A stretch of DNA of 64,000 nt from Candidatus Poribacteria bacterium (GTDB lineage Bacteria > Poribacteria > WGA-4E > PCPOR2b): assembly GCA_965247655.1 (NCBI GenBank), contig OZ252032.1, positions 1,861,101 to 1,925,100 on the forward strand, written 5' to 3'. The translations under genes and the position numbers were made by a program. This document shows, piece after piece, positions 6,339 through 50,608 of the stretch (positions are counted from its first letter, which is position 1; every line of letters begins with the position of its first letter). A model generated the notes under the pieces. The model saw only the letters and a list, made by a program, of their open reading frames with translations, was not told the DNA's origin and did no database searches.

Positions 6339-7577
6339 ATGTCAATCCAACTCATTCGACAAGCCTTCAACGGCAACCGACCACCACCGAAAATGTGGCG
6401 GTCTCATGAACTGAAAGAATACTACGATGTCGTTATCATCGGTGGGGGGGCGCACGGACTCGCCTGTGCATACTACCTCGCCAAAGAGCATGGCATCACC
6501 GATGTGGCGGTGTTAGAAAAAAGCTACATCGGTGCGGGCGGCAGCGGTCGCAATACTGCAATTATCCGCAGCAACTACCTCACCCCAGAAGGTGTGCGCT
6601 TCTATAACGATAGTGTCAAACTCTACGAACAACTGTCGGACGAACTCAATTTCAATGTGATGTTCAGTCAGCGGGGGCACTTGACCCTCGCCCACACGGA
6701 TGGCGGGGTTAATACCATGCGGCGTCGGGCGGAGGTCAACCAGATCGAAGGCGTTGATTCGCGTCTAATTTTTCCCGATGAAATCAAAAGCCTCTGCCCC
6801 TATCTCGATGTAAGCGACCATCCCCGCTATCCCATTTTGGCGGCACTCTACCATCCGCCCGGCGGTATCATTCGGCACGATGCGGTCGTTTGGGGTTATG
6901 CCCATCAAGCGGACGTGCGCGGTGTCCACATTCATCAGAATACAGAGGTAACCGGACTGAAGGTACGGGACGGCAAAGTGACCGGTGTGGAAACGACTCG
7001 TGGTCACATCAAGACCGGGACAGTCCTCAACGCAACCGCCGGTTGGGCTTCGACAATCACGGCGATGGTAGGGATTAATCTGCCGTTGACCACTATCCCC
7101 CTGCAAGCCTGTGTGACCGAACCGCTCAAGCCTTTTCTAGACGTGGTCGTTGTCTCCGGTAGTCTGCATGTCTACATCAGTCAGACGGATCGGGGGGAGT
7201 TAGTGATGGGAGCGAGCGTAGATCCCTTTTCCTCCTATTCGATGGCGGGTTCACTTACGTTCCTCGAAGGCATCGCTGGTCACGTCCTTGAACTTTTCCC
7301 CTCTCTGAGCCATGTCCGCATCCTGCGTCAATGGGCTGGTATCTGCGAAATGCCTCCCGACTATAGCCCAATCATGGGGTTCACACCTGTCAATGGATTT
7401 CTGATGGATGTCGGTTGGGGCACTTATGGATTCAAAGCGTCCCCCATCGCCGGCAAAACTTTGGCAGAGTTAATCGCCACCGGTAAGACCCCAACTCTCA
7501 TCGCTCCCTTCCGCCTATCCCGTTTTGAGGAAAACGAACTGGTTGGTGAGAAAGGTGCAGCGGCGGTGGGGCACTAA
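6339..7577 (+). CDS. soxB: sarcosine oxidase subunit beta (FAD-dependent)
   Basis: 412 aa; VVIIGGGAHG dinucleotide-binding motif; followed by delta, alpha, gamma subunits. Confidence 0.9.
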   Translation: MSIQLIRQAFNGNRPPPKMWRSHELKEYYDVVIIGGGAHGLACAYYLAKEHGITDVAVLEKSYIGAGGSGRNTAIIRSNYLTPEGVRFYNDSVKLYEQLSDELNFNVMFSQRGHLTLAHTDGGVNTMRRRAEVNQIEGVDSRLIFPDEIKSLCPYLDVSDHPRYPILAALYHPPGGIIRHDAVVWGYAHQADVRGVHIHQNTEVTGLKVRDGKVTGVETTRGHIKTGTVLNATAGWASTITAMVGINLPLTTIPLQACVTEPLKPFLDVVVVSGSLHVYISQTDRGELVMGASVDPFSSYSMAGSLTFLEGIAGHVLELFPSLSHVRILRQWAGICEMPPDYSPIMGFTPVNGFLMDVGWGTYGFKASPIAGKTLAELIATGKTPTLIAPFRLSRFEENELVGEKGAAAVGH

Positions 7578-7580
7578 AAT

Positions 7581-7766
7581 GTGAGGTTCATGTAAAAAGA
7601 AGGTGCAAAGTATCCGCGAATTGACGCGAATCTACACAAATGAAAAAGAAAGACGAAAGATGGGCAACCACAAGGGTTGCCCCTACAGTCCGCTCAGAAC
7701 CGGAAATGTTCGGGCGGGGAGACCCCGTCCTTACGATTACTGTTTCACGATTTCTTGATATGAACG
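7581..7766 (+). repeat. structured intergenic repeat, copy A (soxB-soxD spacer)
   Basis: shares 5' block CATGTAAAAAGAAGGTGCAAAG and 3' block TTTCTTGATATGAACG with copies B and C; internal GC-rich hairpins (GGGCAACCacaaGGGTTGCCC; CGGGCGGGGagaCCCCGTCC). Confidence 0.6.
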
Positions 7767-7786
7767 AAATGTGAATAGAGGTCAAT

Positions 7787-8053
7787 ATGTTACTTTTAAC
7801 CTGTCCCAACTGCGGGGATCGAAATGTCAGCGAATTCCACTTTGGTGGGGAGCTTGGTTCACGTCCTAAAGATCCCTCGGCTGCTAGTAATGCAGAATGG
7901 ACAAACTATCTTTACATGCGCAATAATGTTATGGATGCACAGACGGAGTGGTGGCATCATAGTGCCGGCTGTGGTCTATGGTTTCTGGCTGAACGGCACA
8001 CACGGACTAATGAGGTGATAAAGACTTACCCTTACGCGAAACGTGATGCGTAA
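7787..8053 (+). CDS. soxD: sarcosine oxidase subunit delta
   Basis: 88 aa; N-terminal LTCPNCGDRNVSEFHFGGE typical of SoxD. Confidence 0.85.
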   Translation: MLLLTCPNCGDRNVSEFHFGGELGSRPKDPSAASNAEWTNYLYMRNNVMDAQTEWWHHSAGCGLWFLAERHTRTNEVIKTYPYAKRDA

Positions 8054-8091
8054 TGTATGATGCCTGAAATGTGATGGGGATCTCCCTATTT

Positions 8092-8214
8092 TGTGATTAG
8101 CTCATGTAAACAGAAAGTGCAAAGCACGAAGAGAAACCGAGTTTTCAAGTCCGAGAGGACCCCGTGACCGGGGAAAAAACTCGGTTTCTGTTGCATGATT
8201 TCTTAATATGAGCG
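8092..8214 (+). repeat. structured intergenic repeat, copy B (soxD-soxA spacer)
   Basis: CATGTAAACAGAAAGTGCAAAG ... nested hairpin AAACCGAGTTTTcaaGTCCgagaGGACCCCGtgacCGGGGaaAAAACTCGGTTT ... TTTCTTAATATGAGCG; ~85% identical to copy C. Confidence 0.65.
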
Positions 8215-8253
8215 TTGCGATTATCTGTCAGAGATGTGGTAACTGGAGAATGA

Positions 8254-11187
8254 ATGCGAACTGAACAAAATACACTAACAACAACGTCCAATCGACTTCA
8301 TCCGAAGCAGGGTGAGGCCATCGATCGCTCTACTACGATTCGATTCACCTTTGATGGGGTGGAGTACACCGCCTACCCCGGCGATACCGTCGCTTCGGCT
8401 CTGACAGCGGCGGGTGTCAAAGTCTTGAGCCGCTCGTTTAAGTATCATCGTCCGCGTGGGTTGCTCTGTTGCTCTGGACATTGCCCCAACTGTCTGGTGC
8501 AAATTGGAGATGAGCCAAACGTCCGCGCCTGTACCAGACCCGTCGAAGCGGGGATGGATGTGCGCGCACAGAACGTTTGGCCCTCGCTCAACCGAGATCT
8601 GCTGTCCCTGACCCAACTGGGATCGCGCTTTATGCCGGTCGGGTTTTACTATAAGACTTTCATCCGTCCCCAAAAGCTATGGCCCCTCTACGAACATACG
8701 TTACGCCATATCGCTGGCTTAGGTGAAGTTAGTCTTGATACACCCCCAGGCGAGTTTGACAAGCAATATCTACATACCGATGTCGTCGTAGTCGGTGGTG
8801 GACCGGCAGGGATTAGTGCGGCATTGAGTGCAGCCGAAGCCGGCGCGCAGGTGTTGTTTTTCGACGAGAACTCAGCCCTCGGAGGCCACCTCCGCTTCAC
8901 CGTTCCTCTGGAATCTCCCTCGACCACGCAAGCAGCCAAAGACCTACCTGAACTGTTAGAAGCGATTGATCAGCAACCGAATATTACGGTTTTCGCTGAT
9001 ACGAGTGTTCTGGGTTGGTATCAGGACAACTGGCTTTGCGCCGTGAAGGGGGAGCGTCTGTTTAAAATACGGACGAAATCGATGGTTGTAGCGACCGGTG
9101 CCTACGAAACACCGCTTATTTTCGACAACAATGACCTGCCGGGCGTTATGTTGGGGAGTGCTGTACAGCGTCTGCTTCATCTTTTTGGTGTCCTCCCCGG
9201 CAGACAGGTTGTGATTGTAACCGCTAACGAGGATGGCTGGGATGTAGCCGCCGACCTCCAGTCGCTGGGGGTAAACGTGGCAGCTATCGTAGAAGAACGT
9301 GAACATAACGCCTGTTCCAGTCCATACCGGGATGGATTGGCGAATGCCGGCGTCCCGGTGTTCTATCGACATACCATCCTCGAAGCCCTCGGTTCAAACG
9401 CAGTAAGCGGGGCAAAGATTGCACGCCTTGACGGACGGGACGAAATCTCTCCCGCAACGACACAGTCGCTGCAGTGCGATCTCATCGTGACGAGTATGGG
9501 CTGGACACCTGCTACTGAACTTGCTTATATGGCGGGTGGAAAATCGGAATACAATGAAGAACGAGCGGAAATATTACCGGTATCCACTCCACCCGGTATC
9601 TATGTGGCAGGACGAGCGGCAGGAACACACGCCGTTGATTTACAGATTGTCGAAGCGCAGCAGGCAGGATCTAACGCAGCCGCTTTTGCGGGATTTGGTG
9701 AATTCGATGAATCGACAGCGCAATCTTCTGGTGTCTTAGAACCGCGCCGTACTTCCGAGCGGGTGTGCATTCCCGGCAAAAAGAAGCGATTCGTGTGTTA
9801 TTGCGAAGATGTCACCGACGAAGATGTGGAAACGGCGATTGCGGAAGGGTACGACAGCATCGAGTTACTCAAACGATACAGTACCATCTCAATGGGACCC
9901 TGTCAGGGTGCCATGTGCTCGATGAACACCATCCACCTCTGTGCTCGCGCCAACGGTTGGACGGTACAGGAGACCGGCACGACGACCGCGAGACCTCCTA
10001 CTACGCCGGTGACGCTAGGGGCTTTGGCAGGTCAAAATATGGAGCCGGTACAGACAACCCCGATTCATCAATGGCACCTCGATCAAGGTGCAAATATGAT
10101 GGTTGCGGGGCTTTGGCTGCGCGCAAACCACTACGACGATCCAGCGGCGGAAGCGTTGGGGGTCCGTAATCGGGTCGGTCTTATTGACGTAAGCCCGTTG
10201 GGAAAACTGCAGCTTACCGGTCCCGGAGTCCCTGAGTTACTGGAACGCATCTACACCAATCAGTGGGGTAATCTCCGGGTTGGACGGGTGCGCTACGGCG
10301 TGATGTGCAATGACGAAGGCGTAGTGCTAAACGACGGGGTTTGTGCACATCTGAGGGATGATACGTGGTACATGACCACCACCTCTACCGGCGCAACAAC
10401 GATCTTTGAGTGGCTGCAATGGTGGTTGCAATCAGGGTGGGGGGAAGGTATCCATTTAACTGATCTGACGGATACCTATTCCGCCTTCAACTTGGCGGGT
10501 CCCCAATCGCGGGCGGTACTAGAGAAATTAACAGAGCGAAATCTCGCCAACAAAGCCTTCCCTTACATGCGTATCCGCTCTGCTAGGATTGCGGATGTGC
10601 CGTGTCGATTGCTGCGTATCGGTTTCACAGGTGAGCTCTCCTACGAAGTTCATTGTCCGTCGGGTTATGCGCTGCACGTTTGGGAAGCACTGATGGACGC
10701 AGGCAGGGAGTTTGGCATTGTTCCATTTGGCGTGGAAGCACAGCGCATACTGCGATTGGAGAAGGCGCACATTATTGTCGGACAGGACACCGACGCCATG
10801 TCTGATCCGCTCTCTGCTAATATGGCGTGGACGGTAAAATTGGACAAGCCCGATTTTCTGGGAAAACCTTCTCTGATGCGAATCTCTGCCGAAGGGCCGA
10901 AGCAGCTTCTGGTAGGCTTCAAGATGGCTGAATCCGATGTTGTTCCCGCTGAAGGGTTACAGATTGTTGAGCCCGAAGCGGATGGCGGTCTGAGAATTAT
11001 TGGTTGGGTCACCTCCAGTCGATTCAGCCCGACCTTAGAGGAGGCAATTGGACTCTGTTGGCTGCCGGCGGATATAGCATCTCAAAACGGTGCTTCTTTT
11101 ACGATTCGCATGGACGGAGATCTGGCAGAGGCGCGTGTCCATCACGATGCCTTTTATGACCCCGACGGAGAAAGGTTACGCGCATGA
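8254..11187 (+). CDS. soxA: sarcosine oxidase subunit alpha (2Fe-2S / FAD-NAD binding / GcvT-like C-terminus)
   Basis: 977 aa; N-terminal 2Fe-2S Cys cluster (CCSGHCPNC), VVVVGGGPAG, C-terminal aminomethyltransferase fold. Confidence 0.9.
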   Translation: MRTEQNTLTTTSNRLHPKQGEAIDRSTTIRFTFDGVEYTAYPGDTVASALTAAGVKVLSRSFKYHRPRGLLCCSGHCPNCLVQIGDEPNVRACTRPVEAGMDVRAQNVWPSLNRDLLSLTQLGSRFMPVGFYYKTFIRPQKLWPLYEHTLRHIAGLGEVSLDTPPGEFDKQYLHTDVVVVGGGPAGISAALSAAEAGAQVLFFDENSALGGHLRFTVPLESPSTTQAAKDLPELLEAIDQQPNITVFADTSVLGWYQDNWLCAVKGERLFKIRTKSMVVATGAYETPLIFDNNDLPGVMLGSAVQRLLHLFGVLPGRQVVIVTANEDGWDVAADLQSLGVNVAAIVEEREHNACSSPYRDGLANAGVPVFYRHTILEALGSNAVSGAKIARLDGRDEISPATTQSLQCDLIVTSMGWTPATELAYMAGGKSEYNEERAEILPVSTPPGIYVAGRAAGTHAVDLQIVEAQQAGSNAAAFAGFGEFDESTAQSSGVLEPRRTSERVCIPGKKKRFVCYCEDVTDEDVETAIAEGYDSIELLKRYSTISMGPCQGAMCSMNTIHLCARANGWTVQETGTTTARPPTTPVTLGALAGQNMEPVQTTPIHQWHLDQGANMMVAGLWLRANHYDDPAAEALGVRNRVGLIDVSPLGKLQLTGPGVPELLERIYTNQWGNLRVGRVRYGVMCNDEGVVLNDGVCAHLRDDTWYMTTTSTGATTIFEWLQWWLQSGWGEGIHLTDLTDTYSAFNLAGPQSRAVLEKLTERNLANKAFPYMRIRSARIADVPCRLLRIGFTGELSYEVHCPSGYALHVWEALMDAGREFGIVPFGVEAQRILRLEKAHIIVGQDTDAMSDPLSANMAWTVKLDKPDFLGKPSLMRISAEGPKQLLVGFKMAESDVVPAEGLQIVEPEADGGLRIIGWVTSSRFSPTLEEAIGLCWLPADIASQNGASFTIRMDGDLAEARVHHDAFYDPDGERLRA

Positions 11188-11873
11188 GTACCTCCAAAAC
11201 ACCCATCAAGTTGACCTCTTTATACTCCATCGCCCAACGCTTGGGCGCGACATTCACCGAACAACGTGGATGGTGTATCCCAGAGGTTTATACGACCCTG
11301 GAAGCGGAAGTTGCCGCAGCCCGTGAACGGATTGCCCTCGCTGACGAAACGTTGAATGGAAAACTACTGGTCGAAGGAGATCAGGCTGAGTCCGTGTTGA
11401 TGGATGCCTTCGATTTAGGATCACTTCAAATTAACGAAGGACGCGATGGAATCTATCGGTTACGGAATGATCTCTTTTTCATTAGTACGCCGCCCGGCAG
11501 AGAGGTTAGTGCAGAGAAAAAGCTGACGACTGCATCGGCAGCAGCATCTGAACAGTTCGTCACGGTTACAGATGTTACACATGGCCGAGTGGAGATTCGG
11601 GTGATTGGTCCTGATAGTCAGGCACTTTTGAGCAAGGTGTGTGGTTTGGATTTCCATCCTTCAGCATTCCCAAACGAAACGGCGAAACAGAGCAGTCTCG
11701 CCAAGACAACGCAGCTGATCATCCGCAGAGACATCGGCGAGTTACCGACATTTTCGATCATAGGGACACAGTCGTTGGGGCCCTATGTTTGGGATACCAT
11801 GATGGAGGCAGGCAAAGAATTTGGGATTGTCCCGATTGGCAGGGCGACGTTACTCGCGTTGACAGAGGCGTAA
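11184..11873 (+). CDS. soxG: sarcosine oxidase subunit gamma
   Basis: 229 aa; 4-bp overlap with soxA stop; position and size typical of SoxG. Confidence 0.75.
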   Translation: MSTSKTPIKLTSLYSIAQRLGATFTEQRGWCIPEVYTTLEAEVAAARERIALADETLNGKLLVEGDQAESVLMDAFDLGSLQINEGRDGIYRLRNDLFFISTPPGREVSAEKKLTTASAAASEQFVTVTDVTHGRVEIRVIGPDSQALLSKVCGLDFHPSAFPNETAKQSSLAKTTQLIIRRDIGELPTFSIIGTQSLGPYVWDTMMEAGKEFGIVPIGRATLLALTEA

Positions 11874-13953: not shown

Positions 13954-15729
13954 CTACTTTAGGATGAGCATCTTGCGGGTGGCGGAAAAATCTCCTGCTG
14001 TCAACGTGTAAAAATACAAACCACTTGCTACGGTCTCACCAACCTCGTTCCTCCCATCCCAATACGCCGCTTTTGATCGATTTTCATAAACTGCTGCGTT
14101 TTGATGTCCCACGTCAAGCGTGCGGACAACTTGACCGCTGCTGTTATAGATGGTCAATGTCACGAAAGCATCTTCCGCCAACCGGTAGGGGATCCATGTT
14201 TCAGGGTTGAACGGATTTGGATAGTTTGCAAGCAAGGCTGTTTCATCAGGAACCAAAGATGCTAAAAGGAGTTCAAGAGTAGTAATTCCCTCATGGAAAG
14301 TCAGAGACCCATCATCCACCTCACGTGCCATATCTATCCATTTCTGAATCATCATTGAATTCAGATCTGGCACATACTCTGCACTAGGTGCTTTGGAAGT
14401 TGTAGATTTCCCCAAGTATTGAGCAATCGCAACCAAGTCCACAATATCAACACCTCCATTCCCAGTAACATCCACTTGTGGATTATCTGTACCAAGATTC
14501 TGACCAACCAGCACCAAATCGTCAAGGGTTACATTCCCATCCCCATTCACATCATAATTTTGAACTCTAAGATTACCTGCCCTTAGTGTGTGCCGCATAT
14601 GCTGCTGGTTTACATTAGTCAGAGTTAGGTCTGTGTTCCAGAATCTACTATCCCCAGCTGCTTTTGCTTCAAAGGTTATTGAAAACAAAATACCAGTTCC
14701 ACTAGCACCTTCTGTACTAAGACGTACAGAACTAAATCCACTAACCACGCCTTCATTATTACCGATTGTACCTTCTAAATTATAAACGTCCTTTCCCCCC
14801 TTTTGTAAGAAATTACCGGGTTCAACGGAAGTCACCGACAGCACACTCGGATTGAAGTCAAAATGTCGAATTTCCCAGCCGGCTAACTCGACGACATCTT
14901 CGATAATCAAATCGATTGTGAATGTCTCACCAACCGCTACAAATGCTGTCTCATCAGGTATAGGGTTAAGAGAAAAGATAATTGTTGTATTATCGACCCT
15001 AACCCCCCGCTCTCGAAGTGCAGGTATCAGTATATTAATCGATTCATCATTCAAGGGGTTTCCCGCGACAACAATCCAATCCCCAGCCCCTATTCCACGG
15101 TTTTCTATTAATGGCGTTAGGTCTGATATAGAGTTATCCCTAAGATTAAGCCCATAAAGATTGAATAAGCCTCTCAAAGGCGTTATATCCGTTACCGAAT
15201 TACCATCAAGATCCAGGTATCCCAGGTTCGCTAATCCTACCAAAGGCGTTATATCCGTTACCGAATTACCACCAAGATACAGGTCTCTCAGGTTCGTTAA
15301 TCCTCTCAAAGGCGTTATATCCGTTATCGAATTACCATTAAGATACAGGTCTCTCAGGTTGATTAATCCTACCAAAGGCGTTATATCCGTTACCGAATTA
15401 CCCTGAACATCCAGGTATCTCAGGTTCGTTAATCCTCTCAAAGGTGATAGATCTGTCACACGGTTATTCCAAAAAGGCAGCCCTTCCAGATTAGTTGCAT
15501 ATTCAAGTCCAGTTAAATCAATTATGTCCATACTTCCTCCTCGGTCTAGGGAGTACAACCTGTTCATCTCTTCACTAGTGATTACGGCCCCATCGGCCTT
15601 ACCAAGTTGCCTATTGATAGCAGCACGGAGATTAGGGTCAGGAATATCTATGACCTGTGCTGTTGCTGTCAACGGAAGCGAGAAGCAAACCAACAGAAAA
15701 AAAGTGAAACGAAAAAATGATAGTTTCAT
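13954..15729 (-). CDS. secreted modular surface protein: signal peptide + ~7 LRRs + cohesin-like domain + dockerin-like Ca-binding pair + T9SS C-terminal sorting domain
   Basis: likely start MKLSFFRF (GGAGA RBS); 22-aa LRR units LxxLxxLxLxxNxVTDITPLxG; DVNGDGNVTLDDL / DVTGNGGVDIVDL dockerin-like loops; C-terminus NYPNPFNPETWIPY...LTIYNSSGQVV...GLYFYTL...KMLILK matches T9SS CTD. Confidence 0.75.
   Translation of the reverse strand: MKLSFFRFTFFLLVCFSLPLTATAQVIDIPDPNLRAAINRQLGKADGAVITSEEMNRLYSLDRGGSMDIIDLTGLEYATNLEGLPFWNNRVTDLSPLRGLTNLRYLDVQGNSVTDITPLVGLINLRDLYLNGNSITDITPLRGLTNLRDLYLGGNSVTDITPLVGLANLGYLDLDGNSVTDITPLRGLFNLYGLNLRDNSISDLTPLIENRGIGAGDWIVVAGNPLNDESINILIPALRERGVRVDNTTIIFSLNPIPDETAFVAVGETFTIDLIIEDVVELAGWEIRHFDFNPSVLSVTSVEPGNFLQKGGKDVYNLEGTIGNNEGVVSGFSSVRLSTEGASGTGILFSITFEAKAAGDSRFWNTDLTLTNVNQQHMRHTLRAGNLRVQNYDVNGDGNVTLDDLVLVGQNLGTDNPQVDVTGNGGVDIVDLVAIAQYLGKSTTSKAPSAEYVPDLNSMMIQKWIDMAREVDDGSLTFHEGITTLELLLASLVPDETALLANYPNPFNPETWIPYRLAEDAFVTLTIYNSSGQVVRTLDVGHQNAAVYENRSKAAYWDGRNEVGETVASGLYFYTLTAGDFSATRKMLILK
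14980..15475. repeat. tandem ~66-bp coding repeats (LRR units) inside surface-protein gene
   Basis: opposite-strand frame reads periodic KGVISVTELP; nucleotide-level periodicity visible. Confidence 0.7.
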
Positions 15730-16268
15730 AAGTTTATCTCCTTTACGGTTAGGGTAAGTCGTTGTGCTATGGCGTGTCGGACGGGTGATCCATCCCTCTA
15801 CGTTACACGACGGGCGATGAATCTTGACCGCTCCCAACCCTAAAGGATTGGGATTCTTTCAACAGACCGACACCGTTAAGGCTGCTGTATTCCCGCTTCG
15901 GCGAGACGTGCGCTGAAAGCCAGCGTCTTACCGTCTCTCCACGGGCGTTTAGACTCTCTGCGTGTCCCGCAGCGAGTATTGATTTTAAGGGCTTGGTTAT
16001 CGCCCAATGCGCCTTTTATGCTATAGGAGTGCGGGAGACACCACTTAGCAGTGGCGATAGCATTCCCCCACAAGGCGATATATCAACTATACCATATTTT
16101 ATTGAGAAAAACAAAAAAATTAAAGGGGTTGGATCCAACGCTAAAGCATTGGGCTTGCTACTATTTAGTAGTCAATGTTTTTTGCAGTAAGGGTGGGTGC
16201 ATCCTGCCCTTACAGGGGGAAAGCATCTATGCCGCAATGTGGGAACCTGTGGAAGGGGCACTTCCCTT

Positions 16269-17235: not shown

Positions 17236-17262
17236 GTAGGGGTGGGGTGACCCCGCCCCTAC
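17236..17262 (-). terminator. GC-rich hairpin downstream of molybdoenzyme operon
   Basis: GTAGGGGTGGGGtgaCCCCGCCCCTAC stem-loop immediately 3' of the large-subunit stop, followed on minus strand by a T-rich tract (TTAACTTTT). Confidence 0.4.
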
Positions 17263-19571: not shown

Positions 19572-19655
19572 GAAAAATCTCCTTTTGGAATGGAACGTGA
19601 AACGTGATGCGTAAAAGGTAAGGGTTAAAATCTTGACTTCAATACGTGGTGGACA

Positions 19656-31705: not shown

Positions 31706-31965
31706 TAGGTTTCGCAAACGCAGCACTATGACATCTATCGACAAGGTAAAAGGAATACCTTATGATACTTGAGGGGTGCTAATAATTATTGTCTGAATCA
31801 GGATTGTCAGGATTTAAGGATTTTCAGGATGAGATGACTCAAATTGACACCGATGAGCATTTGAGGCGAGGGCATCATTATTGATCCGATGCCGCATCGC
31901 GAGGCAAAGCAAGCTGAATCACCTATTAAACAGATGACACGCAAAACCCGGACGCTCATTTAACA

Positions 31966-32065
31966 AATCGTGCAAAGAAACCGAGTTTTGAAGTCCGAGA
32001 GGATCCGTGACCGGGGAAAAACTCGATTTCTCTGAGTTGTACTACACTTTCTTTTAACATGAGCG
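31966..32065 (+). repeat. structured intergenic repeat, copy C (5' of R-M module)
   Basis: GTGCAAAGAAACCGAGTTTTgaaGTCCgagaGGATCCGtgacCGGGGaaAAACTCGATTTC ... TTTCTTTTAACATGAGCG; near-identical to copy B. Confidence 0.65.
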
Positions 32066-32507
32066 AACCTATTTATGGGCACCCCTCATTTAGATAAGAA
32101 CGGTATCTGAAATTGTAGGAGATGCCTCCTAGTATCAATGTTCGGCAATACCTAAAAGCATGAAAAATCAACGACAAATTCTAAAAGAGAGAGACAGGGT
32201 GCCGCAAGCTATCCAAATGACGGTCGAACTCTTTTCGGGCATCGGTGGATTCCGCATCGCTGCTGAAAGGCACGGTATTCAGACGTTGTGGGCAAATGAT
32301 ATTTGTCCGAGAGCATGTCAAGTATACCGTAGTCAATTTGGAGACGCTGAAATTCGCCAAGGCGATATTCGAGCATTCGTGCATGAGATTCCTTCGCACG
32401 ATTTACTTACAGCCGGTTTTCCTTGTCAACCATTCAGTAGTGCGGGGAAAAAAAAGGGGCTTCGCGACCCTCGTGGGCATCTTTTCGCTGTTATTGTTGA
32501 TATTTTA

Positions 32508-33555
32508 GGGCCTTATGCTAGTTAGCTTCCCTTTTTTTTAGTTCCGATAAAAAAAGGGAAGCTAAAAAGTCCTCCAGTCTGTTACTATAGATGAACTTGA
32601 CAATCCATCTAAAACTGGAGGATAACCTTATGATAACCGATTTTGATGACCTCTGTCTATGGACTTATGTCATTGTTGATGACATTCTGATAAAACTCGA
32701 ACCATTACTCCGACGCCCAGGCCCCCCTCCCCCATGTAGCGATAGTGAGTTAATCACTATGATATTGGTTGCCGAATGTAAGGGGTGGGACATCGAAACA
32801 CAACTGCTATCCGACTTTAGCCAGCACCCCCATCTGTTCCCTATACTGCCTTGTCAGACCCGACTCAACCGGCGAAGACGCAATTTGGGGACAATCATCA
32901 ATCGGATTCGACAGATGCTCTTGTCAGACATTGAAGCGGCATCGGAGAAACTGTGTATTATTGATAGTTTGCCGATTCCAGTCATTCAGTTTCATCTGGC
33001 ACCTTCGTCATCAAATAATTGGTCATGCTATGGTGCCGATTATGGGCGGGTGGAATCGAGGAAACAGACCATTTTCGGCTATAAACTTCATCTGTTAGTC
33101 ACCGCAAGTGGGGTGATTGTTGATTTTGAACTTGCCCCGGCTTCTGCAACCGATTTATCGGTTGGTTACGAATTGCTCTCTGGACACCAAGATAAGCAAG
33201 TGATAGGGGATAAAGCCTATATTAGCAACCAAGTCAAAGACCAATTAGCTCAACTCAACCGTATCGATCTGATAACGGTCCCCCGACGCAACCAGAAACA
33301 GCAGATTTCCAGACAAACCAAGCGGTGGATTAACGAAATTAGGCAGAGGGTTGAAACGGTTAATGGTCAATTGAGTGAACAATTTCATATACAAAAGAAT
33401 CATGCGCATAGTTTCTGGGGGGTATGCACTCGGTTATACTCCAAACTCACCGCTCATACGCTATGCGTTTATCTCAATCAGCTATGCAAAAAAGAGGCGT
33501 TTTTACAGATTAAAGAGTTGGCGTTTCCAGTTCATTAGTAACTAGCATAAGGCCC
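32508..33555 (+). mobile_element. IS982-family insertion sequence (1048 bp) with perfect 17-bp terminal inverted repeats and 6-bp target-site duplication
   Basis: IRL GGGCCTTATGCTAGTTA 32508..32524, IRR TAACTAGCATAAGGCCC 33539..33555; TSD ATTTTA at 32502..32507 and 33556..33561; perfect 14-bp hairpin GCTTCCCTTTTTTT/AAAAAAAGGGAAGC just inside IRL (32525..32562). Confidence 0.85.
32630..33538 (+). CDS. IS982-family DDE transposase
   Basis: ~302 aa from the Met after a GGAGG RBS; motifs IIDSLPIPV, GYKLHLL, VIGDKAY resemble IS982 DDE_Tnp_1 transposases. Confidence 0.7.
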   Translation: MITDFDDLCLWTYVIVDDILIKLEPLLRRPGPPPPCSDSELITMILVAECKGWDIETQLLSDFSQHPHLFPILPCQTRLNRRRRNLGTIINRIRQMLLSDIEAASEKLCIIDSLPIPVIQFHLAPSSSNNWSCYGADYGRVESRKQTIFGYKLHLLVTASGVIVDFELAPASATDLSVGYELLSGHQDKQVIGDKAYISNQVKDQLAQLNRIDLITVPRRNQKQQISRQTKRWINEIRQRVETVNGQLSEQFHIQKNHAHSFWGVCTRLYSKLTAHTLCVYLNQLCKKEAFLQIKELAFPVH

Positions 33556-34405
33556 ATTTTAAGAAGGCATCGCCCACGTTATTTTATTTTGGAAAATGTG
33601 AAACGCTTGCTTCCAATGGAACAAGGGGATCATTTCGCCACAATGCTTGCCGCTTTGACAGCACTTGATTATCAGGTGGAATGGCGTTTAATCAATACGA
33701 TGCACTTTGGCTTACCGCAAAATCGTCAACGTGTGCTTATATTAGGCTCTTTGGGTATGACAGATGATTGCCCCGTTGTTAGACTTGCCTCATCAGAAGA
33801 TCTTTGTAGGATATTAGAAAGAAACTTTCCAATAATCAGGACTGTATCAAGCTGGACTGAGATTGAAAGACATAGTAAGAAATTTCCCAATTGGGGACTG
33901 GCTTGGAACGGACGCTTCTTTGCGGATAATATGGAATACTTCTCTGAAGCAAAGCCAATTGTACCCTTACGGCGGGTACTACAATCTACGGTTGACCCAA
34001 TTTTTGACTTCACCGAGAATACTTTGCAACGCTTAAAAGACAGCAAGCAAACTGATAAATTTGTTGAAGGTGTTCAAATTCTTTATAATCAAAATGGTGG
34101 TGCTCGCATGGGCTACACCGTGTTCGGTATTGACGGAGTTGCACCAACACTCACGTCTACAGCTAGCCGCCACTATGAACGTTACAAAGTGGGCAATTGC
34201 TATCGACGTTTGACAAATGTAGAATACGCTCGAATACAAGGATTTCCAGATCAGCACTGTTCAGCGGTTTCCATTTACAATCAATACTCTTTATATGGTA
34301 ACGCGATTCCACCTATATTTGGGAGTTGGCTCATTCATAAGATTTTACGGAATCATGTAACGACATTAAAAGAACCGAAGCAACAACAACTTCATCTTTT
34401 TCTCA

Positions 34406-35398
34406 ATGAGTCATCAAATTATGCCTACTAAGACTGAACTGCGCGGAGTACTTCATACACGGCTAGAACAAACTATGTCAGCGTTAAATCGCGCACTTCA
34501 AGAGATAAATCTTGAACGTCTTGAACCCGTTCTTTCACGTATCGGACGTGGGCGAACCTTGCCTCACTGGTACAAACAACTTTTTGAGTCGCAAGCTCTT
34601 CCCAACCTTGATGGTAAAACAGTTGGTAGCGTTGTTGAAATGCTTTTTGTCGCTGTTCTTGAAACCGTGACTTTTCAGGATATTGAAATACCGCCGCTCC
34701 ATATTAATCCTGCGCGAGGCGTTGATTTGCCGGATATTGACTTGAATATAAAGTCTCCCTCTCAAAACTACTGTACCAGTGAACCTTTTTTTTCAGCATA
34801 TGAGAGACTACTCGGTAGTGAATATGATGCCCTTATCATGCTAACTGATTATCAAACGCGCAAAACAAACCCGCCTTTGAAACTTCAGGTAATCAGGTGG
34901 CAATATCTCTTCAATACGCAATTGGCAGACTTTGCTCTGACTGCAATTGCCCGGAAACACCGCGATTGGTTGCTTAAACGGAGCGAGCCTTGGACACAAA
35001 AGATTTTTCGATTTTTGGCTTATGTCAATCAGAGCCATTGGCAAGCAGGGCATTCACTTCGTATCATTGACGCGATGCAAAACAGAGATGCAACACAACG
35101 TTTGGTGATTGCAGCGGAAAATGACTTTAGAGCAAAGAATATCCAACGCTTACACGCCGATAAAGAGGCAATACCTGATCATCAGCTAGAAAGTTTACTT
35201 TCTATAGCTGAGACTCAACCTCTAATTTTGGGAATTGTTGATGCAGCAGATAACTGGGTTGTGGAAAATTATAAAGATGTCGCTCGCCTTCCAAACGAAA
35301 ACGAATGGACGCGATTGCTTGCTAGTTCCCTAGATGGACAGATTGGAATGAGTTTTGCACTTCAATGGAGATACAATTTTGGACGGATATTTAGGTAA
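34406..35398 (+). CDS. putative type II restriction endonuclease (cognate of disrupted C5-MTase); no recognisable family
   Basis: 330-aa ORF overlapping the MTase stop by 26 bp; function inferred from position only. Confidence 0.4.
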   Translation: MSHQIMPTKTELRGVLHTRLEQTMSALNRALQEINLERLEPVLSRIGRGRTLPHWYKQLFESQALPNLDGKTVGSVVEMLFVAVLETVTFQDIEIPPLHINPARGVDLPDIDLNIKSPSQNYCTSEPFFSAYERLLGSEYDALIMLTDYQTRKTNPPLKLQVIRWQYLFNTQLADFALTAIARKHRDWLLKRSEPWTQKIFRFLAYVNQSHWQAGHSLRIIDAMQNRDATQRLVIAAENDFRAKNIQRLHADKEAIPDHQLESLLSIAETQPLILGIVDAADNWVVENYKDVARLPNENEWTRLLASSLDGQIGMSFALQWRYNFGRIFR

Positions 35399-50305: not shown

Positions 50306-50608
50306 TACATCCTCCCGTATCAATTGTGATTGGAACGTGAAACCTAATGTGTGATATGTGATGCGTAAAACAGACAGCGAATTCTTCCTTGCTTCCCCTC
50401 ACAGTTTGAGCAATGTATTCGTCTTTAATTATTCTCAATTGACCACAGACTTGCATCCATGATCGCTCCAGTCTAATGGGACCGCAATTTCAGATATGCT
50501 GAAAAGCAGTAAATCGGGTAGGTGGTCTCCAATTCTCAAAAGATGTTCTCAGAATTCGAGCGTCCCTTTCTCATCATGTGAACCGAATCGTGAACTTCTT
50601 CGAGATCC

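Follow-up and report, generated by a model that had tools for sequence, protein, structure and literature searches.

Structured repeats in the spacers of a Poribacteria sox operon are probably copies of a miniature transposable element family related to IS1595

Poribacteria are uncultivated sponge symbionts. A 64,000-nt stretch of Candidatus Poribacteria DNA (assembly GCA_965247655.1, contig OZ252032.1, positions 1,861,101 to 1,925,100 of the forward strand; hereafter the window) contains three related structured elements, two of which fill the soxB-soxD and soxD-soxA spacers of a soxBDAG operon. With a probability of about 0.92, we consider these elements to be copies of a family of non-autonomous DNA transposons, that is, MITEs (miniature transposable elements with inverted repeats), which are mobilised by an IS1595-family transposase and are passengers in the sox operon. 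The association with the sox operon is incidental, and the elements are not a dedicated regulator of it. Terminal inverted repeats (TIRs), target-site duplications, copy number, restriction to the phylum, insertion polymorphism and ends homologous to those of IS1595-family insertion sequences (ISs) were observed directly. A preliminary description of the window had listed a miniature mobile element among several possible roles, and the TIRs, the 8-bp duplications, more than 100 dispersed copies, empty orthologous sites and an IS1595-family parent now bear this out.

The copies and their setting are given below in window coordinates. The sox genes were assigned by Pfam, REP stands for repetitive extragenic palindromic, and L numbers denote loci compared with the window.

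6339-7577, soxB
7577-7584, target-site duplication to the left of copy A (AAATGTGA), which begins with the final base of the soxB stop codon
7585-7766, + strand, MITE copy A in the soxB-soxD spacer, 182 bp, 'type A' subfamily, delimited by its ends and an 8/8 duplication
7585-7610, + strand, left TIR of copy A (GGTTCATGTAAAAAGAAGGTGCAAAG), which aligns with the left ends of IS1595-family ISs
7662-7686, - strand, nested GTAG-tagged REP-like palindrome in copy A (GTAGGGGCAACCCTTGTGGTTGCCC); Poribacteria loci also have this type away from MITEs
7711-7734, - strand, second nested REP-like palindrome in copy A (GTAAGGACGGGGTCTCCCCGCCCG), with a GTAG or GTAA tag
7741-7766, + strand, right TIR of copy A (...TTTCACGATTTCTTGATATGAACG), which aligns with the IS right ends
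7767-7774, target-site duplication to the right of copy A (AAATGTGA); GAGG, the ribosome-binding site of soxD, comes next, then the start codon at 7787
7787-8053, soxD
8091-8098, target-site duplication to the left of copy B (TTGTGATT), a site that the empty L100 and L001 spacers have once
8099-8214, + strand, MITE copy B in the soxD-soxA spacer, 116 bp, the basic element plus a 24-nt loop module
8150-8173, + strand, 24-nt module (TCCGAGAGGACCCCGTGACCGGGG) with two mini-hairpins in the apical loop of copy B
8215-8222, right target-site duplication of copy B (TTGCGATT), a 7/8 match
8254-11187, soxA
11184-11873, soxG
31953-32065, arms on the - strand, degenerate MITE copy C, 113 bp, with an SBP_bac_3 gene on one side and a C5 methyltransferase gene on the other

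The relatedness of the three elements, as first described, is supported by motif counts far above those of shuffled sequences. The 22-nt 5' motif CATGTAAANAGAARGTGCAAAG has two exact matches in the window (0.00 expected from shuffles), the 3' motif has three matches with up to two mismatches (0.47 expected), and the core shared by copies B and C, described before as near-identical, has two (0.00 expected). The conserved 5' and 3' ends are inverted repeats of each other and close one long hairpin per copy. All three sites reported earlier are real; their limits were refined to 7585-7766, 8099-8214 and 31953-32065, the start of copy C having been placed 13 nt too late. The spacers had rightly been called unusually long: soxB-soxD measures 209 nt and soxD-soxA 200 nt, each with one element, and 19 and 76 nt, respectively, are left once the element and one duplication are removed. 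The spacers are thus long because MITE insertions fill them. The insertions left the sox stop codons, ribosome-binding sites and start codons intact.

The left TIR of copy A fits the family pattern exactly. This copy folds into a closed hairpin (-57.3 kcal/mol, z -3.3), its only coding potential is a single mechanical 51-codon open reading frame (ORF) starting with GTG, and the type A form is also found at the orthologous site of L100 and at locus L108. A hidden Markov model (HMM) built from 40 canonical copies and searched with nhmmer detected copy B on the plus strand (E 4e-22, model positions 2-91; fold -45.5 kcal/mol, z -5.4). With nhmmer E-values of 8.8e-12 on the minus strand and 9.1e-6 on the plus strand, copy C has its arms the opposite way round from copies A and B, and its fold is that of a degenerate copy (-30.6 kcal/mol, z -1.6).

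The commonest form of the family is a non-coding unit of 90-93 bp (about 91 bp; GGCTCATGTAAAAAGAAAGTGCAAAGCACGAAGAGAAACCGAGTTTTCAAGAAAAAACTCGGTTTCTTTGCACTAAATCTTAACATGAGCG), and variants range from 105 to 329 bp. The TIRs of ~26 bp (GGCTCATGTAAAAAGAAAGTGCAAAG) are kept across subfamilies whose cores differ. The basic unit is nearly fully self-complementary and forms one long hairpin; whichever way the unit is read, the canonical fold reaches ~-41 kcal/mol (z -7 to -10). Among 93 two-ended copies, the 8-bp flanks agreed perfectly (8/8) in 44 and at 7/8 in another 16, compared with 0.6% perfect agreement in shuffled flank pairs. This signal depended on the register: with a shift by one base only 1-2 copies remained at 8/8, and with a shift by two bases none did. 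The target motif is symmetric, WW|W-N6-W|WW, and A+T makes up 73.5% of the duplicated sites (background 51%); a symmetric AT-rich target is what a DDE transposase would be expected to give. Insertions are mostly intergenic, an ORF of at least 100 aa being overlapped at only 7 of 95 distinct sites. At L002 8492-8582, a copy overlaps the 3' end of a PhyH-family gene upstream of soxB, and the stop codon of that gene is the TAA within the MITE left repeat (CATGTAA), which indicates that the insertion rewrote the C-terminus of the gene.

Prokaryotic MITEs are non-coding elements of 50-800 bp with TIRs of at least 10-15 bp and duplications of 2-10 bp; they occur in many dispersed, mostly intergenic copies and depend on a transposase supplied in trans (PMC10969869; PMC11602168). 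The Poribacteria element agrees with these general criteria: it is small and non-coding, has TIRs and a target-site duplication, is dispersed in many copies, is polymorphic in its insertions and has a cognate IS with matching ends. It differs from prokaryotic MITEs in general in being an almost perfect palindrome through its centre and in having its loop in both orientations.

An exact-end scan with CATGTAAANAGAANGTGCAAAG over one genome per species (185,579 species) returned 106 loci, all in metagenome-assembled genomes of Candidatus Poribacteria (17 genomes), with up to 14 exact 22-mer matches per complete chromosome. The further genomic copies and target-site duplications for which the preliminary description had suggested a search therefore exist. 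The same scan of viral contigs gave zero matches. In the JGI metagenomes the exact-end pattern matched twice, on contigs without an organism label, one match being the IS at L109 described below; a metagenome scan built to exclude canonical MITEs gave no match. In 930 kb of sequence, the MITE HMM found 156 non-overlapping matches. A plasmid similarity search with the element gave chance-level matches only. Neither this sequence family nor such a MITE in Poribacteria was found in the searchable literature, and the family is apparently undescribed so far. Judged by exact ends in the collections scanned, it also appears to be restricted to the phylum, bar the two unlabelled metagenome contigs.

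Insertion polymorphism was evident when five sox operons (the window, L001, L002, L047 and L100) were compared.

Window: in soxB-soxD, a type A copy immediately behind the stop codon of soxB; in soxD-soxA, copy B, 116 bp
L100: type A copy at the same site as in the window in soxB-soxD; soxD-soxA empty, with the target present once
L001: a different copy, truncated on its 3' side, in soxB-soxD; soxD-soxA empty, with the target present once
L047: a truncated copy identical in kind to that of L001 in soxB-soxD; soxD-soxA empty
L002: no copy in soxB-soxD; in soxD-soxA, a copy of 172 bp that belongs to another subfamily and uses the same 8-bp target, with duplication TCGTTATT

Spacer occupancy thus varies among the five operons and includes clean empty sites. 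Because related Poribacteria operons lack the elements or have different ones, the sox operon does not need them. The truncated copy shared by L001 (6764-6829) and L047 (2075-2140) has lost its right terminal repeat and stops right at the soxD ribosome-binding site (…CTCGGTTTCTTATGGAGAT…ATG); it is an immobilised remnant fused to the translation-initiation region of soxD. A MITE within an operon has a counterpart in Chunjie of Geobacter uraniireducens (Chen et al. 2008, per PMC10969869), which the title of that paper presents as not disturbing operon structure. As described in the review, Chunjie resembles the Poribacteria element in its intergenic copies, variable size, conserved terminal repeats and direct repeats, and differs from it in its unrelated sequence and host and its larger size of 178-235 bp (PMC10969869).

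The evidence for the parent comes from ISs with the same ends. The L109 match is a complete 977-bp IS whose left end (GGCTCATGTAAAAAGAATGTGCAAAG) is identical to the MITE left TIR at 25 of 26 positions; its right end is CTTTGCACAATCATTTAACATGAGCC. The L109 transposase matched DDE_Tnp_IS1595 (PF12762) with an E-value of 5.7e-19 and 69 bits against a cut-off of 27 bits, and its split ORF scored 64 bits against NCBIfam NF033547, under the 75-bit cut-off. Homologues at E <=1e-20 numbered 2,909; full-length homologues of 307 aa have PF12762, and some have PF12760 too. Three identical IS copies lie on one 6.75-Mb contig (ends GGCTCATGTAAAAAGTAAGTGC and GCACTTACTCTTGACATGAGCC), and two of these are flanked by perfect 8-bp duplications (ACAAATTT at L112 and ACCATCTT at L113). 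At L114 the repeat is 9 bp and at L111 7-8 bp, and no flanking duplication was seen at L109, L118 and L121. An 8-bp duplication is typical of the IS1595 family in general.

A link to Poribacteria was also found on the side of the IS. The 90%-identity cluster of protein P0129 includes a protein named by NCBI as IS1595 family transposase [Candidatus Poribacteria bacterium], and the partial contig of this protein (L122) gives the IS right end. The same right end occurs in L121, a full 986-bp copy with both ends from a metagenome assembly whose organism is not given; its ends agree with the corresponding MITE TIRs at 22 of 26 positions each, and the MITE HMM detects both. Taken together, both ends of IS1595-family elements of 977-989 bp can be aligned with the MITE, over its first 22-26 nt and its last ~24 nt, and since both ends match, the MITE is, on this sequence evidence, a derivative of this IS1595-family lineage. 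The homologous ends and the 8-bp duplication in related copies are the features shared with the IS1595 family (Siguier, Gagnevin and Chandler 2009, as listed in PMC3281130; PF12762; NF033547).

The IS6 family (GG tips, 8-bp duplications) was considered as the parent and was dropped once the IS1595 ends matched; in a comparison by eye, the TGT motif was one base off the IS6 consensus of PMC7986276. In L109 (238-1168), L118, L119 and L120, the transposase is encoded in two overlapping frames of 152 aa and 170-193 aa. The L109 frames join at GGGGAAAAAAGGGG, and the same two-ORF split is called in the three NCBI assemblies. More distant relatives have one 307-aa ORF. Either a programmed frameshift (-1) or an inactivating mutation common to these copies could account for the split.

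Several observations weigh against derivation from this lineage and simple passenger status. The ISs with the closest ends (L109, L118) come from assemblies not labelled as Poribacteria, one being labelled Chloroflexota, and the Poribacteria-labelled IS agrees at only 22/26 per end. Searches of the window and of ~870 kb of Poribacteria loci adjoining MITEs revealed no autonomous copy, and no IS copy lay beside the sampled MITEs. In the fetched loci, TIR pairs 1.3-3.6 kb apart enclosed ordinary genes and no transposase, ORFs adjoining solo TIRs were metabolic genes, terminal 7-mer pairs with a duplication yielded only a 571-bp nested MITE, and clustering of multi-copy ORFs yielded only orthologous sox genes. 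Beyond being without a transposase gene, the MITE differs from the ISs examined in its inner 14-bp stem-loop, which was not found in them. No MITE and no Poribacteria-type REP was found in 63 kb of the 6.75-Mb genome that has three IS copies. Copy C has no clear duplication, its flanks agreeing at only 4/8. Finally, a model of purely neutral passengers predicts neither the strand bias of the family nor the number of compensatory stem pairs. Copies in spacers between same-direction genes are co-oriented with these genes in 39 cases and anti-oriented in 16 (p = 0.003), and changes on both sides of a stem were seen at 8 pairs vs 2.0 +/- 1.1 in shuffles.

The cores of the copies differ through nested sequences and through the orientation of the loop. 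The preliminary description had called the elements REP-like. This does not hold for the whole element, and applies only to the two GC-rich hairpins nested in copy A, which fit the pattern of a tag plus a palindrome. The commonest REP-like type in Poribacteria loci is GTAGGGGCGGGG (20 in 872 kb), and GTAG-tagged REP-like palindromes (e.g. GTAGGGGCGGGGTCACCCCACCCCTAC) are scattered over the window, at 17236-17262 and ~2513-2536 as well as in copy A, and in other Poribacteria loci. The type A composite recurs at the unrelated locus L108 and therefore spread after it had acquired the REP-like palindromes. In copy B, the 24-nt module was compared with the canonical loop TTTTCAAG|AAAAAA. The module (GTCCGAGAGGAyCCcGTGACCGGGG) is also present in copy C at 31994-32016, in the loops of other, REP-like palindromes at L063:5307 and L083:3702, and in a MITE at L072:2589. 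From these positions, the module may be a tiny element that targets hairpin loops.

When 55 canonical copies from L003-L105 were aligned, the central loop was found in both orientations relative to the asymmetric arms, as GAGTTTTTTCTTGAAAACTC in 39 copies and in 14 as the exact reverse complement. The right-arm variants, two in number, were each seen with both loop forms; this was judged by eye, as automated classification of the arms was unreliable. The alignment suggests recurrent inversion of the loop between the inverted arms. The loop module of copy C reads in the same direction as that of copy B despite the opposite arms, and the occurrence of the loop in both orientations explains how these copies share a core.

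The following course of events would account for the elements. An IS1595-family DDE transposase with the same ends, supplied in trans, would move the MITE, which would insert at AT-rich WW|W-N6-W|WW sites with duplication of 8 bp. The core of copy A would have arisen by later nesting of GTAG-tagged REP-like palindromes, the B/C core by insertion of the 24-nt two-hairpin module in the apical loop, and the two loop forms by flip/flop inversion between the inverted arms. The sox copies would have landed in short gaps rich in A+T, one behind the stop codon of soxB and the other ahead of the ribosome-binding site of soxA. Presumably the operon is transcribed through the elements, giving an mRNA with hairpins of roughly 40 bp that could be cut by RNase III, or could slow ribosomes and RNases.

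This last step leads to the best surviving alternative, which is compatible with mobile MITE copies in the operon and adds a function to them. The copies would have been co-opted as RNase III/RNase E sites, stability barriers or modulators of translational coupling that tune the soxB:soxD:soxA ratios. We regard such co-option as unlikely. The two copies in the sox operon point the same way as the operon, with hairpins that stop 12-30 nt ahead of intact ribosome-binding sites, and the 39:16 bias holds family-wide. This bias could result from transcript selection, or instead from the direction of replication or the mechanics of insertion; both orientations fold equally well, so that RNA structure alone leaves the bias unexplained. 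Over 54 distinct canonical copies, the hairpin is paired at 93.6% (the two outer helices at 89-94%, the inner stem at 97%), and four pairs of the inner stem show compensatory change. Slid controls gave 0-4 pairs with changes on both sides, and compensatory cells amounted to 9 of 1779, carried by a few divergent copies. The covariation asked for in the preliminary description is therefore slightly above the controls and weak, and it does not separate selection on DNA from selection on RNA. Against co-option there are also the related sox operons without elements or with different ones.

For what the sox copies might do as RNA, the best model is offered by Correia elements of Neisseria and ERIC/IRU elements of enterobacteria. 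These are palindromic MITE-like repeats of ~100-150 bp that are co-transcribed with genes and whose transcripts are cleaved by RNase III or affected via RNase E (PMC10969869). Processing is demonstrated there and would be by analogy here, and the sequences and the parent transposase differ. The Poribacteria element does not belong to the Correia/ERIC type, since its duplication is 8 bp and the plasmid search gave no similarity. The Correia duplication is TA.

A reading in which the family is more than a passive MITE is, in our view, somewhat less likely again than co-option. It would involve a hairpin or cruciform state, a loop that serves as a landing pad for mini-elements, and an RNA-level role selected by the host. 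Simple cut-and-paste transposition of a deletion derivative does not predict near-perfect central palindromy, two loop orientations and a separate 24-nt module, and these features would fit the hairpin or cruciform state and the landing-pad loop; the co-orientation bias would fit host selection for an RNA-level role, e.g. RNase III punctuation of the soxBDAG mRNA.

Far less probable is a SPRITE-like spread by recombination, in which the elements would be intrinsic terminators or insulators that work in both directions and create polarity in the operon. A moderately T-rich stretch follows the inner stem GAAACCGAGTTTT...AAAACTCGGTTTC whichever way it is read, but a consensus scan found no terminator in copy B or the MITE arms, many copies lie 0-30 nt between a stop codon and the next same-direction start, where termination would silence the downstream genes, and the target duplications indicate transposition rather than recombination.

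Lower still we place a dedicated cis-regulatory RNA of the sox operon (riboswitch, attenuator or leader), with a metabolite-sensing role or control over read-through among soxB, soxD and soxA. The location within the operon, the strong structure and the unusually long spacers would suit it. However, no Rfam family matched at the gathering score anywhere in the window, and the best sub-threshold match, MicX, was at chance level (19.3 bits vs a 75-bit cut-off). More than 100 unrelated loci, beside unrelated genes, have this element too, the same spacers are empty in relatives, and target-site duplications flank the copies. A scan for consensus promoters and terminators found no such site in the elements on the operon strand; the sole site inside an element was a terminator-like match on the opposite strand of copy A. 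The earlier suggestion of an mRNA-stabilising or processing structure or an attenuator received no positive support, given the lack of an Rfam match, the variable occupancy, the marginal covariation and the lack of an operon-strand terminator or promoter.

Equally improbable is a palindrome of the REP type, or of the bacterial interspersed mosaic element (BIME) type, spread by a REP-associated tyrosine transposase (RAYT; IS200/IS605-like) and not by a DDE transposase: the GTAG tag on the GC-rich hairpins of copy A and the palindromic nature of the whole element speak for it, and the lengths (20-40 bp for REPs vs units of 91-182 bp with 26-bp TIRs and 8-bp duplications) and the match of the ends to IS1595-family DDE elements speak against it. 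To our knowledge, REPs lack target-site duplications. The likeness to GTAG-tagged REPs (Di Nocera et al. 2013, PMC3733652) is confined to the two nested short palindromes of copy A with their GTAG/GTAA tag, and these are cargo of one MITE subfamily and not the repeat family itself, the canonical unit being without them.

Some further features of the window were noted. The C5-cytosine methyltransferase gene begins 94 nt downstream of copy C. It matches PF00145 (profile positions 3-97 and 108-320) at 32160-32504 and 33589-34431 and is interrupted by an IS of ~1.05 kb. This IS (~32507-33556) has 17-bp terminal repeats (GGGCCTTATGCTAGTTA), a flanking 6-bp ATTTTA repeat and a DDE_Tnp_1_3 transposase at 32591-33538. 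As a relative of the MITE it was rejected, its terminal repeat and 6-bp flanking repeat being unrelated. Because the methyltransferase gene is split, the restriction-modification module mentioned in the preliminary description is probably inactive. Intergenic DNA has short, degenerate runs of heptads (CGTGATG / CGTAATG / CGTGAAA), in the window at 8027-8069, 19588-19630 and 50328-50370, and at L001 7089-7140 and L100 7523-7545; in several genomes one such run comes right behind the stop codon of soxD, and another lies within a MITE (L011). At 15105-15496, a minus-strand ORF (13954-15837) contains four 66-nt repeats in tandem that are 72-79% identical. They may encode 22-residue protein repeats, and the neighbouring gene in relatives is of the leucine-rich-repeat/cohesin type.

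For annotation, the long sox spacers with their hairpins are to be read as insertions and not as conserved regulatory architecture. A Poribacteria repeat defined by its consensus, TIRs, 8-bp duplication, target motif and IS1595 link provides a presence/absence marker at the strain level, and a MITE repeat of this kind helps to explain assembly breaks in Poribacteria genomes. The filled and empty orthologous operons form a natural experiment on whether a ~40-bp hairpin in a polycistronic mRNA alters its processing or the stoichiometry of the subunits.

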